Positions 15,655-35,113 of a stretch of 64,000 bases of DNA are shown piece after piece. A program made the translations under genes and the position numbers. How positions within the stretch are numbered: the first letter of the stretch is position 1; each line of letters starts with the position of its first letter. The DNA comes from a virus (taxonomy: Duplodnaviria; Heunggongvirae; Uroviricota; Caudoviricetes), in IMG/VR virus record IMGVR_UViG_2513237361_000012, positions 17,300-81,299 of that record. The stretch is one strand, 5' to 3'. The notes beneath the pieces are model-generated. The model was not told the DNA's origin. It saw only the letters and a list, made by a program, of their open reading frames with translations, and searched no databases.

Positions 15655-17742
15655 TCAGGCCAGCGGATCATCTTCTTCCTGCATGGCAAAAAGCTTTTGC
15701 ATCCCCAGTCTGAAATCGCGTTCAAATTCTTCGTCATGCTCTTCTTCATATTCCGGTTGCTGAACTGCCACCACATTCCCAACCGGGCGATAAACATTAT
15801 CCAGCCAGGGTTCAGCTTGTTTGTGTTCCAGAATCTGAATACCTTCATCTTCAGCATCACGAATTTTTTCCTCAGCGCGTTTGCGCATTCCTTTAATACG
15901 CTGTTGCTGTTTGTGATATTCCGCACTGACAGGGAAGGCTGCGCGTTTATTGCCGTTCCATATCGCCTCACAGATAAAGCTGCCGTCCTTGCGACGTACC
16001 GTAATTCGCTCGGCGTCATGAATGTCATAACTGATAAGCACTTTGCGACCGTGTTCGTCACGCAACTCCGGCGCGTAGTAAATATTGTTCAGCCACTGGA
16101 TTTCGCAGCGTCTTACTGGACGCTCCACCATCGGGCGGAACATGTCGCGCAGCTCAAGATCACTCAGCCACTCAATTTCGGTGTCTTCTTCTGCCAGGCG
16201 TTTTTTTCTGAACTCTGCCGGGCTGTAATGCCGCCCGTTCGGTTTCATCGGCAGCTCAGAATGCGGGCGGTTGTTGTACCATTCCACGCCTTCACGAATA
16301 GCCTCAATAAGCTCCGCCCACGATGGCAGCTCGCGCATTGCAGCTTTCTGGCGGTCGTTCAGAGGCTTGTCCTGTTGCAGGGCGTTAAACGCTGAACGCA
16401 GATCACGGTTAAGTACACGCAACGATTCCCGGTCAGCACCCTTGCCAAAATAGGTGCGATACCTCCTGGCTATACGCATCGGCAGTGTCCGGTTCAGGCG
16501 TTCAATAATGCCGCGCCCCTGTGGATTACCGGCAATACCTGTTGGGTGTTTAATCCCCAGGCGGGGCAGAATACCCACGACCTCTTTGTCCAGCATGTCA
16601 GCCGTTTCACCAGAACCGTTATCCGAGTAATACAGAAACGGTTTTCCGTGGTTGCGAATGCCGTGCTGTATCGCACCGGCAACGGCGAACACGTTCTCGG
16701 CAAGGTCAAGACTCCAGCCAACAACAAACCGGGTTCCACCGTCGATCACAAATGTGACTTCCGGTGAGAATGGACGCCCGTGGATCGGATGTGCACATTT
16801 CAGCTTCATACCGTGACCGTCACCAATCCAGACATAATTCACCGGCATAGCTGTCCAGTCGCGGCGGGTGAATCCTTCAAGCTGACGGTATTCACTGCCG
16901 GTAACGCGCCCTTTTTGTTTCACCACTTCCGGCAATTTCTTCATGGCATAACGAACCACATCGTAAGAGGGCATCACCTCCAGCATGTACGGTTCGTCCG
17001 CATGGCGACACTGCCATTCCGCGACAAAATCCTCGTAGGCTTCAGACATAGGTCTGCCGTTCACCTGGCGATACTGCGCCAGAAACTCAGGTAGCCAGCT
17101 AATTTGTTCCGGTTTTATTTCGTCGCGTTTTCCTGGTGCCAGTAACAGCAGCCGTTCTGCGGCGTTCTGTGACTGGTTGTACTTCAGCACCCACTGATAA
17201 AGTGGGTCACGACTGATGGTGCGATTAGCGCCACGTTTTGCATTGGCGTTAACTGCGGCCTGTTGCAGGCGTTCCGGTAGTTCACCTTTACGGGCTTTTT
17301 CGACAAGAAAGTTAATGGCTTTCAGTCGCCCGAGATCACCCTCGCTTTCCAGCTTCAGCACTTCCACTACCAGCGCAGCTCTTGCTTCAGATACCCGACG
17401 CTGATTTTCGGTCAGCGCATTCAGGCGTTCTTCCATCAGTTGTGGCGAACCGCGATATGCTTCGATTGCCTGGACAGCATCAGGATTGCGCGCCTTCCTG
17501 GTAACGACCTGAACTTCGGAAACGTTGTTCTCCGTAGCTACCAGTTGTTCCACATAACGTTCACGCAGCGCCTTTTGAGTCGCTTCCGGCAGACAATCAA
17601 TGTGGTACTCAATGGCTTTTGTACCTGCTCGTTTGCGTCGAAAATGCTCTGATGAAGCCAATTTTTTTATAGTGTACCTCACACCTTGCGCACTTCCCGG
17701 CATACCAGGCAGCCCCACGAGTTCGTTGACAGACACAAACAT
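15655..17742 (-). CDS. A: MuA-like DDE transposase
   Basis: 695-aa protein with MuA-like N-terminal DNA-binding region and DDE core; position between ner and B. Confidence 0.9.
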   Translation of the reverse strand: MFVSVNELVGLPGMPGSAQGVRYTIKKLASSEHFRRKRAGTKAIEYHIDCLPEATQKALRERYVEQLVATENNVSEVQVVTRKARNPDAVQAIEAYRGSPQLMEERLNALTENQRRVSEARAALVVEVLKLESEGDLGRLKAINFLVEKARKGELPERLQQAAVNANAKRGANRTISRDPLYQWVLKYNQSQNAAERLLLLAPGKRDEIKPEQISWLPEFLAQYRQVNGRPMSEAYEDFVAEWQCRHADEPYMLEVMPSYDVVRYAMKKLPEVVKQKGRVTGSEYRQLEGFTRRDWTAMPVNYVWIGDGHGMKLKCAHPIHGRPFSPEVTFVIDGGTRFVVGWSLDLAENVFAVAGAIQHGIRNHGKPFLYYSDNGSGETADMLDKEVVGILPRLGIKHPTGIAGNPQGRGIIERLNRTLPMRIARRYRTYFGKGADRESLRVLNRDLRSAFNALQQDKPLNDRQKAAMRELPSWAELIEAIREGVEWYNNRPHSELPMKPNGRHYSPAEFRKKRLAEEDTEIEWLSDLELRDMFRPMVERPVRRCEIQWLNNIYYAPELRDEHGRKVLISYDIHDAERITVRRKDGSFICEAIWNGNKRAAFPVSAEYHKQQQRIKGMRKRAEEKIRDAEDEGIQILEHKQAEPWLDNVYRPVGNVVAVQQPEYEEEHDEEFERDFRLGMQKLFAMQEEDDPLA

Positions 17743-30571: not shown

Positions 30572-31630
30572 TTAATTTTCAATTCCCTCCATTTTACAAT
30601 GAGTTTTTTCCCAGAACTGTAATACAACAGGACTAGCCCACTCTGGCATCAGTGCGTTATTTAAAAAACTGAAAACATCATGAGACGCATCAGCATTTTT
30701 TCTAAGGAATTTCCAGCCTTTTCTAGTATTTATCTCAACAATACCTAACCCACCATCATCAAACATATGCATCTTGAATTCAGGATTGTTTACACCTAGA
30801 GATTTTATTTCTTTTATGTATGGACTATCTTCATCCATAAATATTTTCTCTATGTGCTTAGCACAATGATATATTTTATTTCGATAAGTTGATACGCTCA
30901 CAGCGGTACGCGCTGTTGTTATTCCCATTCCTAATGGGGCATATGCTTTTCCATCCATCACTACGGGCAGATTTATTCCATTTTTTCTTAAGTTTGCAAT
31001 ATCTGAATCTGTAGTTGGATGAATACAAGCTAAGCCTGAAATACCTTTCATTTCAAATATTTCTGCTGCTTCTGGCCAGTTGCGTATGAATGTTTCTACC
31101 AAATCTCTTTGAGAAAAAAGATTTGGTTCTATGTTTTTATCATGATGTTTTATATCAATAAAAAGCACAGCGTTTGAGTACACCTTCAGGAATAATACCC
31201 ACTCAGCACGATCTGAGTATTTTTTACTTGAACTTACTGGATTTAATGGCAGATGGAGGTGATGAATCCCCCAATCAGCCCATAGGTTATCCGTTCTTTT
31301 CGTCGCCTTTTTACCGCTTGTGTCATTGAATAATGTTAATGTTTTACTCTGATAAGGATTTACATCACCACCAGTAGTAAACAACATCTCGATTCTCTGC
31401 AATCCAACCCTTGCGCCATCGTGAATATTTTCAGGAAATCGATCTGATTTTAAAATTATTCGTTTTTGTGGAACAATGTAGCGTAAAAGAAAATCACACC
31501 ACCTCAGTAGAGGATCGTGAAGATTTGAGTGCCCGGATTCATCATATAATAACCCAAATGCTTGAATTCCCTTCTCTGAAATTTCGTCAATATCTTTGAT
31601 TAGATTAATATTTTTTCGTGCGTCCAACAT
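30572..31630 (-). CDS. uncharacterised 352-aa protein in the P2-family variable hotspot
   Basis: Long uninterrupted AT-rich ORF convergent with the DinI-like gene and divergent from the retron; no motif recognised. Confidence 0.55.
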   Translation of the reverse strand: MLDARKNINLIKDIDEISEKGIQAFGLLYDESGHSNLHDPLLRWCDFLLRYIVPQKRIILKSDRFPENIHDGARVGLQRIEMLFTTGGDVNPYQSKTLTLFNDTSGKKATKRTDNLWADWGIHHLHLPLNPVSSSKKYSDRAEWVLFLKVYSNAVLFIDIKHHDKNIEPNLFSQRDLVETFIRNWPEAAEIFEMKGISGLACIHPTTDSDIANLRKNGINLPVVMDGKAYAPLGMGITTARTAVSVSTYRNKIYHCAKHIEKIFMDEDSPYIKEIKSLGVNNPEFKMHMFDDGGLGIVEINTRKGWKFLRKNADASHDVFSFLNNALMPEWASPVVLQFWEKTHCKMEGIEN

Positions 31631-32024
31631 ACTAACTCCGTTTAAATATAATTTTTTAGTATTTCAGTTAATTAATATCTATACGCCGTTATAGCTGAAT
31701 TTTCCGGTGATTTCAGGGCACATTAACCAATTTAGATAATACTATAGTAATGGTTGGGCTGATTTTTCAAGAACAAAAGTAATTTTCAAGCTTTGTAACA
31801 TGTTGATTTTCCACTTTTCGCTCAAGCGAGCTTTCATCTTTGCAAGCCCATATGTTCGTTTTTCAAGCGATTATTCAGATACGTTAACTTCCCATGGCAG
31901 TGCATGACTATGCTGCATGAAATCGCATGATCGATCGAGGATCGTCTATGCTTAGACCAGCCAGAAATGGCGGGCTTTTGCTCATGTCATGCAGCTGCAT
32001 GAAAACCACTGCATAAAGTGGGCA

Positions 32025-32043
32025 GGCGTGGCGGGGATACGAG
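32025..32043. other. possible cos-like sequence (GGCGTGGCGGGGA...)
   Basis: First 13 nt match my recollection of the phage 186 cohesive-end sequence; remainder differs. Confidence 0.3.
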
Positions 32044-32110
32044 GGCGCGCTATCACGTAAAATAGGCAAAATACTTCTGGAAAACAGAAAGTTGAAGTGA
32101 TATGTTCATA

Positions 32111-34043
<1,933 letters not shown>

Positions 34044-34084
34044 TGAACAGCCCTAACGTTATGAACGCTAAGGCTGATTTTTCG

Positions 34085-35113
34085 TTAAAATTTATATGGT
34101 TTGAATTGTAATATATTATCTTCAAGCCATTTATTTAATTCCTGCATCCTTTTCTGTAAGGGTATTAATTCGTTCCTCACAAACACTAAACTCGCTTTTT
34201 CCACATCCCCAAACCCCCCGACATTATTTGGCATAATCCCCATCATTTGCGGCGGCACACGATGTGCTGCCATCATGTCATCCCGACTCACGTTCTTGAT
34301 ATTCAAAAACTCATCCTTCGCTGCGACCTCTGACAACGGGATAATCTGAAGTCCGTCCTTTTTGCCGTTAGGCGAGTACATAAACAGATTGCGGAAGTTG
34401 CCAGGGCCTTTGGCGCTTTTCATCGCATTGCGGAGGTTGTTCACATCCTCCTGGTTCTGCGCTGCATCGGTCATGTACATGATGAAGCCTGCATGACTGC
34501 CGTTAATGTAATACTTGCGGCGGAACAGCGTGGCGGACTCGTTGAGCAGAGCTGACGGAATGGCAGAAAGATAACCGGGCAGGCCGTAGATCTCCTGGTT
34601 GATGTCCGGTTCCATCAGATGAAAAATGTTGCCTTTCGTGAACTGATACGGCTGCGTAGTCATGCCGTATTGCACAAACCAGTAGGTATCCAGGTCTAAC
34701 CCGCGTCGGGTGTATTTTGCCAGTGCAGGCTCAAGGGCGATAACTTCACCGAAGCGGTTCGTGCGTTTCTCCAGGTAGGCGTTACCAAAAACCAGATAGT
34801 CCTGTACAAAACGCGAAAAAGCCTGCTGGCTGAGCAGCGGGTGAGGGATGTAGGTGCTGGTCAGAATGTTGCACTTCACTGCAATCGGTGAGCTGTGATG
34901 CACGGCGGCGCGGAAGGTTCGCGCCAGTCCGTCGAAACTCACAGGCGGCTCATACCAACGATCCATCTGTACGCATTCCACATAGTCCAGCAGTTCGCGG
35001 CGGTCCAGAACAGGAACGGGATCACCGAAGCTGAATGCTTCGGCTGAAGTCTGGCTTTTATGCTGGCTCTGTTTCGTCGACGCAGCGCGGTTCTTCTTAC
35101 TCTTTCCCATCAA
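34085..35113 (-). CDS. Q: P2 Q-like portal protein
   Basis: 342-aa ORF divergent from O, upstream partner of terminase P; P2 Q size and position. Confidence 0.8.
   Translation of the reverse strand: MMGKSKKNRAASTKQSQHKSQTSAEAFSFGDPVPVLDRRELLDYVECVQMDRWYEPPVSFDGLARTFRAAVHHSSPIAVKCNILTSTYIPHPLLSQQAFSRFVQDYLVFGNAYLEKRTNRFGEVIALEPALAKYTRRGLDLDTYWFVQYGMTTQPYQFTKGNIFHLMEPDINQEIYGLPGYLSAIPSALLNESATLFRRKYYINGSHAGFIMYMTDAAQNQEDVNNLRNAMKSAKGPGNFRNLFMYSPNGKKDGLQIIPLSEVAAKDEFLNIKNVSRDDMMAAHRVPPQMMGIMPNNVGGFGDVEKASLVFVRNELIPLQKRMQELNKWLEDNILQFKPYKF

Follow-up and report, generated by a model that had tools for sequence, protein, structure and literature searches.

The open reading frame (ORF) on the minus strand at positions 30572-31630 of a 64,000-nucleotide stretch of Caudoviricetes DNA (IMG/VR record IMGVR_UViG_2513237361_000012, positions 17,300 to 81,299; this whole stretch is called the window) is, judged by its sequence, the PD-T4-7 gene, a stand-alone, prophage-borne abortive infection gene directed against T-even phages, the phenotype being taken from the literature. 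It starts with ATG and encodes 352 amino acids followed by a stop codon. The encoded protein matches the PADLOC model for PD-T4-7, PDLC04066, from residue 1 to residue 342 (model positions 1-335 of 337; E = 8.8e-144, 476.6 bits), and a second PADLOC PD-T4-7 model, PDLC04065, also detects it (E = 1.9e-39).

Identification of the PD-T4-7 gene

PD-T4-7 is one of 21 systems obtained when an E. coli pangenome library was selected against phages (Vassallo, Doering, Littlehale, Teodoro & Laub 2022, Nat Microbiol; PMC9519451); it was recovered by T4 selection and classed as abortive infection, toxin-antitoxin (TA)-like. The prototype, RRN43039.1 from E. coli UMB0103 (ORF 337619-338677, 1,059 bp, labelled 'RelE toxin-like'), was cloned as a single ORF with 167- and 424-bp flanks and validated under its native promoter on a low-copy plasmid (PMC9519451). 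The window ORF is likewise 1,059 bp long and shares with the prototype the full-length model match, the species group, the single-gene organization and the 186/P2-like prophage setting. No substantive difference between the two is apparent; the neighbour in the second cargo slot of the window is retron Ec67, a place that in E. coli is commonly taken by a GmrSD-type gene. The 5,426 complete E. coli genomes contain 48 copies, each sharing at least 99% identity with the window gene, and the next-nearest homologue cluster, at 87% identity, is rare. As a named and validated system since 2022 that is included in PADLOC-DB and detected by standard defence finders, PD-T4-7 is already known, and the words 'uncharacterised' and 'undescribed' used for this ORF in the first-pass annotation, which was made from the letters alone, do not apply.

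What might explain why the same annotation found the protein unrecognisable and without a family signature, when PDLC04066 identifies it so decisively? Scans of the window protein against Pfam, PHROGs and NCBIfam return nothing significant, and this accounts for the impression; RefSeq, which holds an exact match to the protein (WP_000883169.1, by sequence look-up), labels it 'hypothetical protein'. These blanks, together with an empty search of PDB sequences, are what could be said for a wholly undescribed protein family without recognisable relatives, a reading that is already refuted by the PADLOC match, the published prototype and the fold comparison and whose chance is negligible. The hidden Markov model and structure searches that had been proposed as a check divide, with the PD-T4-7 model and a RelE-type fold on one side and the three empty family databases on the other. 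A P2 old/tin exclusion gene was considered and rejected: PADLOC gives the PD-T4-7 models and a noise-level PDC-S13 match (E = 0.035), and Pfam finds no ATPase or Toprim domains. The tin/old-type homology that had been put forward as grounds for abandoning a defence role is thus absent from the PADLOC and Pfam scans.

The description of the ORF as long, clean and AT-rich was accurate. Its GC content is 0.35-0.36, compared with about 0.52-0.55 in the flanking phage genes, the chance of 352 stop-free codons at its composition is about 5e-12, and its homologues form more than 129 clusters at 90% identity. It lies, as had been stated, between replication gene A (27394-29808, encoding the replication endonuclease) and the portal gene (34085-35113) of a 186/P2-like prophage, and the corresponding region of E. 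coli NCTC8623, 99.9% identical, is annotated with the same gene order. The gpA-portal interval of P2-like prophages is an established defence hotspot (PMC9519451; Rousset et al. 2022, PMC9122126); seven of the 21 systems of the pangenome selection were in P2-like prophages, four of them in this interval (PMC9519451). The suspicion that the ORF is hotspot cargo encoding a single-gene defence or exclusion factor was borne out, PD-T4-7 being an abortive infection gene against T4.

The gene also appears to act alone. Its cassette holds one long ORF, and a search of the cassette for an antitoxin-like small ORF yielded only ORFs of chance size, none of them a conserved partner. There is no conserved neighbour among the loci from Escherichia, Salmonella, Providencia, Serratia, Pantoea, Aeromonas, Methylophaga and Paraburkholderia and the IMG/VR prophages. 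With no adjacent antitoxin gene in the contexts examined and no Pfam family match, PD-T4-7 is not a canonical type II TA module.

A predicted RelE-type core within a three-part protein

The AF2 model of PD-T4-7 (pLDDT 89.7, pTM 0.88) divides the protein into three parts. The N-terminal region, residues 1-54 (31469-31630, minus strand), is predicted to be helical, with helices at 10-24 and 40-50, and carries a conserved PLLRWxDFxLRYI sequence with R43, W44, D46 and R50. The middle part, residues about 55-165 (31136-31468, minus strand; limits set from secondary structure), resembles a toxin of the RelE/ParE (BECR) fold and consists of a strand at 58-61, a helix at 71-86 and strands at 122-126, 144-150 and 154-162. 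The C-terminal half, residues 166-352 (30575-31135, minus strand), has no solved relative and no known fold, and it holds a glycine-rich GMGxTTAxT loop at 233-243. The modelled core has the RelE-type alpha/beta fold, and the CARF-RelE protein Cami1 scores 5.7; for a predicted structure, the fold assignment is robust.

The block RTDxLWADWGIHHLHL, residues 112-127 (31250-31297, minus strand), has the lowest column entropy in the protein and is a candidate active-site strand. H124 and H126 lie on the predicted strand 122-126, and at the end of the RelE-like sheet's last strand, 154-162, comes the strictly invariant H163 (codon 31142-31144, minus strand), with D159 four residues before it. The earlier statement that the ORF has no catalytic motif was not confirmed: this block and D159, H163, R50 and R57 are invariant or nearly so across the family.

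How does this compare with the published label? 'RelE toxin-like' derives from the top HHpred match, to YafO_toxin with 51% probability, E = 2.7, over residues 118-164, and the same HHpred list contains 18-28% matches to sheath-type proteins (PMC9519451). The tail sheath hint can be dropped. When a YafO profile (K-12 YafO and 17 relatives) was aligned with the PD-T4-7 profile by hhalign, residues 58-161 paired with YafO 2-104, so that the whole domain is in register and the invariant YafO residues H60 and H62 fall on H124 and H126. Alignments by hhalign against single YafO and YafQ sequences were uninformative. Judged from these profiles, a specific affinity to YafO is plausible but weak, and formal membership of any Pfam RelE-type family, a question of sequence, fails. 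A profile search of PDB sequences returned noise only (ankyrin and MLKL at E > 0.03).

YafO (PF13957), the E. coli type II mRNA interferase toxin of the YafN-YafO module, shares the hHxHL strand motif with PD-T4-7, but it is a protein of 132 amino acids, whereas PD-T4-7 has 352, with about 55 additional residues at the N-terminus and 190 at the C-terminus, and PD-T4-7 is without an adjacent YafN-like antitoxin gene. The ribosome-dependent mRNases HigB, RelE, YoeB and YafQ are 4-19% identical to PD-T4-7 in sequence. Unlike these enzymes, PD-T4-7 is not part of a two-gene TA operon, its toxin-like domain is embedded in a three-part protein, and a long insertion at 87-121, containing the family-specific conserved motifs NPYQS and RTD, separates the helix from strand 2.

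Conservation and extent of the family

An exhaustive profile search yielded 3,480 representatives at 50% identity, among them a subfamily of shorter proteins with about 290 amino acids. Two alignments were used, one of 77 homologues (A1) and one of 72 sequences that includes divergent members and has a mean column identity of 23% (A6). In A1, the residues R50, R57, N91, D114, L116, W120, H124, H126, D159, H163, P186, R215, G236, A240 and T242 are invariant, and RTDxLWADWGIHHLHL at 112-127 is a conserved block. In A6, where identity falls to about 23%, D114, H124 and H163 are the same in every sequence, and conservation is 90% or more at R57 and H126. The most conserved segment is residues 91-127 in the toxin core (column entropy 0.98 bits), followed by a second island, the GMGxTTAxT loop at 233-243 (1.04 bits), in which conservation of G234 and G236 stays at 90% or more even in the divergent subfamily. 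Variability is highest in residues 244-352 (2.3-2.6 bits), and the last 42 or so residues are missing from the short subfamily (occupancy 0.35). Because the toxin core is conserved and the C-terminal appendage is variable, the protein can be read as an effector joined to a regulatory or sensor module, residues 166-352 being the inferred module. Neither the Pfam scan nor the fold comparison reveals a CARF or other recognisable sensor domain.

Since tblastn against 50,697 GenBank phage records gave no match and Foldseek against the BFVD viral structures gave nothing at E <= 0.001, the family is seen on prophages and other mobile elements and not in deposited phage genomes. The Providencia homologue is in an integrase/AlpA island, adjoining a gene for a PvuRts1I-like/SRA nuclease (L004 6796-7671), the Pantoea homologue is within an integrative and conjugative element, the Serratia and Paraburkholderia homologues are in small islets, and those of Methylophaga and Aeromonas are lone inserts.

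Three further relatives deserve mention. A distantly related P2-like prophage from IMG/VR (L042, 399-8658), whose portal and terminase are 58% identical, carries a relative of only 25% identity and 327 amino acids in its variable region beside the portal gene; the relative is flanked by a UmuC-like polymerase gene, a 426-aa ORF of no known kind and a Dam methylase gene. It looks as if the same hotspot had acquired a family member on a separate occasion. In another IMG/VR prophage (L041, 5965-7009), the homologue is split into ORFs of 152 and 111 amino acids beside an integrase gene and appears to be a decayed copy. A protein of 298 amino acids encoded on a 3-kb Logan contig (P0116) shares PD-T4-7 residues 9-127 at 45% identity, including the IHHLHL-equivalent strand (IHHLHI), and continues after the equivalent of residue 127 as a DUF1780 'putative endonuclease' domain. 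It was considered as evidence for a separable N-terminal module but set aside, because the break interrupts the RelE fold itself and a single 3-kb contig is its only source; recombination or a chimeric assembly probably produced it.

A hotspot with two cargo slots

Comparison with related prophages resolves the gpA-portal interval of the window into two segments. In a blastn comparison with E7-1N7 (L014), an Ec67-retron prophage without PD-T4-7, homology is confined to 29800-30492 and 31809-34100, which delimits a PD-T4-7 cassette of 1.3 kb at 30493-31808 (slot 1); in E7-1N7 this slot is occupied by a DUF8087 gene segment. Strain ET350 has PD-T4-7 followed by a gene for a 593-aa GmrSD-type protein, and its homology to the window runs from gpA to 32052. 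Since the homology breaks with E7-1N7 and with ET350 bracket each segment, the sequences argue that the hotspot consists of slot 1 (30493-31808) and slot 2 (32053 to the portal gene) and that the two are independently exchangeable. Between them lies a shared linker at 31809-32052, bounded by the position where E7-1N7 homology starts (31809) and the one where ET350 homology ends (32051/32052). Retron Ec67 occupies slot 2 in the window (32114-34043, plus strand) and is context only, outside the PD-T4-7 system. In the survey of the locus that had been suggested, slot 1 held PD-T4-7 or DUF8087 and slot 2 held GmrSD, DUF4062 or a retron, the DUF4062 protein being a third slot-2 variant.

The linker, 244 bp long, is 98-99% identical over aligned segments among prophages carrying PD-T4-7 and the retron, PD-T4-7 and GmrSD, or DUF8087 and the retron; it is rich in TGCATG repeats, and its GC content is above that of the cargo. 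From these comparisons it is probably a recombination junction that lets the slots assort independently, and it might hold regulatory signals. The DUF8087 protein found in slot 1 of E7-1N7 has 111 amino acids (L014 2288-2623) and, as the holder of a defence slot, may be the product of a small exclusion gene.

Could PD-T4-7 nevertheless be a functional partner of the Ec67 retron, an extra effector or regulator within one two-part system? The two genes are adjacent and divergent in the window, in NCTC8623, in GCA_000208565.2 and in two IMG/VR prophages. Against this, slot 2 is GmrSD-type in 47 of the 48 complete-genome E. coli carriers and retron Ec67 in one, NCTC8623; other Ec67 prophages hold a DUF8087 gene in the PD-T4-7 slot; the two are separate cassettes with a shared linker between them; Ec67-type retrons have their own Toprim effector fused to the reverse transcriptase; and the published clone, which held the PD-T4-7 ORF and its flanks only, protects against T4. 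A link to the retron thus finds no support, and we regard a partnership as largely refuted and very improbable. The Ec67 retron is an independent system occupying the other slot, a conclusion that follows from the absence of any conserved neighbour and of an antitoxin-size ORF alongside PD-T4-7, and the rarity of the pairing is explained by the independent exchange of the slots.

Proposed mechanism and alternatives

How might a protein of this architecture abort infection? The reading that we consider probable, with some confidence but well short of certainty, is that PD-T4-7 contains a RelE/ParE-type mRNase core that is kept silent by its own flanking modules and is released by T-even infection, aborting it. 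Residues about 55-165 would be a RelE/ParE-superfamily toxin whose sequence pattern is nearest to YafO and whose predicted structure is nearest to HigB, RelE, YoeB and YafQ, with an acid-base endoribonuclease site formed by D114, H124 and H163 together with H126 and R57. In the uninfected lysogen, the N-terminal helices and the fast-evolving C-terminal module of about 190 residues would silence the nuclease, so that the whole could be viewed as a CapRel-like 'fused toxin-antitoxin'. When a T4-like phage infects, a phage protein or an infection-induced state would lift the restraint; the freed nuclease would cut mRNA, probably on the ribosome, translation would collapse, and the infected cell would die or stop growing before phage progeny form.

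The proposed logic is reminiscent of two multidomain immune proteins. CapRel (Zhang et al. 2022, PMC9712102) is also prophage-borne, also acts by abortive infection and also combines, in one polypeptide, a TA-type toxin with a more variable C-terminal domain. Its toxin is a RelA/SpoT-type tRNA pyrophosphokinase, however, and not of the RelE-type fold, and autoinhibition and direct sensing of a phage protein have been demonstrated for CapRel but are only inferred for PD-T4-7. By analogy, the PD-T4-7 architecture is compatible with CapRel-like fused toxin-antitoxin logic. Cami1 (CARF-RelE; PDB 8phb), a type III CRISPR ancillary ribosome-dependent RNase, is activated by cyclic oligoadenylate through its CARF domain. 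PD-T4-7 resembles CapRel and Cami1 by logic and is not homologous to their regulatory parts.

Several points weigh against the self-restrained mRNase. The fold assignment comes from a predicted model and not from a solved structure, and the YafO profile alignment is marginal (E = 0.013, probability 3.3%). Pfam finds nothing, and at E <= 10 the 77 members show no recurrent family, the YafO model included; hhalign of PD-T4-7 to YafQ gives nothing. A search of the literature turned up no mechanistic study of PD-T4-7 and no demonstration of RNase activity, ribosome dependence, autoinhibition or a trigger; PD-T4-7 is absent from a 2025 survey of multidomain RelE/ParE toxins, and in a 2024 preprint it appears only in a list of presumed RNase systems. 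The link to the published phenotype has its own weak point, in that identity to RRN43039.1 is deduced from the model match, the equal length and the species-wide near-identity. Finally, the same fold does not always signify an RNase: its ParE-type members are gyrase poisons.

In one alternative, which we judge unlikely, the BECR domain is a ParE-like, non-nucleolytic toxin that poisons DNA gyrase or another essential enzyme instead of cutting RNA, and infection is aborted by a block to DNA topology or replication. Another, which we also doubt and to the same degree, reverses the roles of the parts, making the RelE-like domain a sensor or anchor that binds the ribosome or RNA and leaving the role of true effector to the C-terminal half. 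The C-terminal half has no known fold and yet contains the strongly conserved island at 233-243, the glycine-rich loop of which could be a nucleotide-binding or other catalytic element, and Cami1 provides a precedent for a RelE-type domain within a multidomain immune protein. The pattern of conservation argues the other way: the only strictly invariant residues are in the RelE-like domain and have side chains typical of catalysis, and conservation is lowest over most of the C-terminal half, with a tail that is dispensable in one subfamily, which is more typical of a module for recognition or regulation.

An extension of the restrained-core reading concerns the neighbours. The family recurs beside type IV nucleases that act on modified cytosine, GmrSD_N/GmrSD_C in E. 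coli and Salmonella (L019-L023, L027-L030) and the PvuRts1I-like/SRA enzyme in Providencia; the latter targets hydroxymethylcytosine, and its PD-T4-7 homologue is independent of the E. coli/Salmonella context. Such adjacency could be layered anti-T-even defence or plain clustering in islands. The C-terminal module of about 190 residues might then be an infection sensor of new fold that recognizes a T-even phage protein and unleashes a YafO/RelE-like RNase, the adjacency reflecting a layered or guard relation. PD-T4-7 could back up type IV modified-cytosine restriction by sensing a phage counter-measure, for example an IPI*-type inhibitor, and the guard logic of PrrC and PARIS offers a model for this role. 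We hold this reading, sensor and guard role together, to be speculative and improbable, because the prototype needs no neighbour of this kind and the adjacency is seen in just two independent contexts.

Other features of the locus

Upstream of the PD-T4-7 gene, a Shine-Dalgarno-like GGAG (31636-31639, minus strand) is read 5 nt before the ATG, and a promoter-like candidate, TTGAAA-18 nt-TATAGT (31741-31770, minus strand), with 10 of 12 consensus matches, is located about 110 nt before it; for the region as a whole, promoter-like sites around the gene are not in excess of those in shuffled sequences. Between the 3' ends of the convergent DinI-like and PD-T4-7 genes is a GC-rich hairpin, GCCCCCA...TGGGGGC, with a 7-bp stem (30405-30434), which may be a bidirectional terminator. 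If the prototype's 167-bp flank is the 3' side, the boundary of the clone would map to 30405, the first base of the hairpin.

The region 29903-30383 (plus strand), which is context only and convergent with PD-T4-7, comprises a LexA box, a small ORF and the DinI-like gene (ATG at 30162). The first-pass annotation had described an SOS-controlled DinI/Tum-like gene in convergent orientation, and the DinI-like match and the orientation are confirmed, while the LexA box fits the SOS control. The box, taCTGTaaatataaACAGt at 29903-29918, is perfect, precedes both the small ORF and the DinI-like gene, and is the sole CTGT-N8-ACAG in the 64-kb window. Shuffled sequences yield a mean of 0.74 matches to this pattern, so that one match is at chance level and the argument for the box is its position and not the count. 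The arrangement fits an SOS-induced unit like tum of phage 186. Two homopolymer insertions of one base each set the window apart from NCTC8623 and ET350 here: an extra T in the T-run at 30006-30013, which truncates a hypothetical ORF of 62 amino acids starting at 29962, and an extra A at about 30331-30333, which shifts the frame of the DinI-like C-terminus, giving 73 amino acids in the window and 77 elsewhere. The DinI-like product is also 73 amino acids long in GCA_000208565.2; the insertions are thus either real pseudogenising changes in that strain or errors of its assembly.

On the other side, the divergent orientation of the retron was correctly described, as seen from the Ec67 reverse transcriptase-Toprim gene and the inverted repeats. 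The reverse transcriptase-Toprim ORF (ATG at 32283) matches the NCBIfam model retron_Ec67_fus with 705.7 bits (cut-off 450) and is assigned by PADLOC to RT-Toprim_I-C, and the retron non-coding RNA is bounded by the a1/a2 inverted repeats at 32114-32126 and 32232-32244. No Rfam model catches this RNA, a scan of 29500-34500 having come back empty. In RefSeq, Ec67 reverse transcriptases carry long N-terminal extensions (626-646 amino acids in all) that run across msr/msd (window 32162-32282, L001 5361-7241, L014 3080-5020). In GCA_000208565.2 the gene is called as the 586-aa ORF from ATG 32283 (MTKTSKLD...), which fits the NCBIfam model from position 1, and the upstream extension is probably an annotation artefact.

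Implications

As discovery this analysis adds little; its value is a sharpened, testable mechanism and the two-slot anatomy of the hotspot. The RelE label of PD-T4-7, weak at 51% probability, now has solid structural support from the predicted model. D114, H124, H126, H163 and R57 become direct targets for mutagenesis, and the C-terminal half, with no solved relative, is flagged as the likely sensor. If PD-T4-7 is indeed a single-polypeptide abortive infection protein of the RelE type, it would offer a compact system in which to study the silencing of a TA-type RNase without a separate antitoxin.

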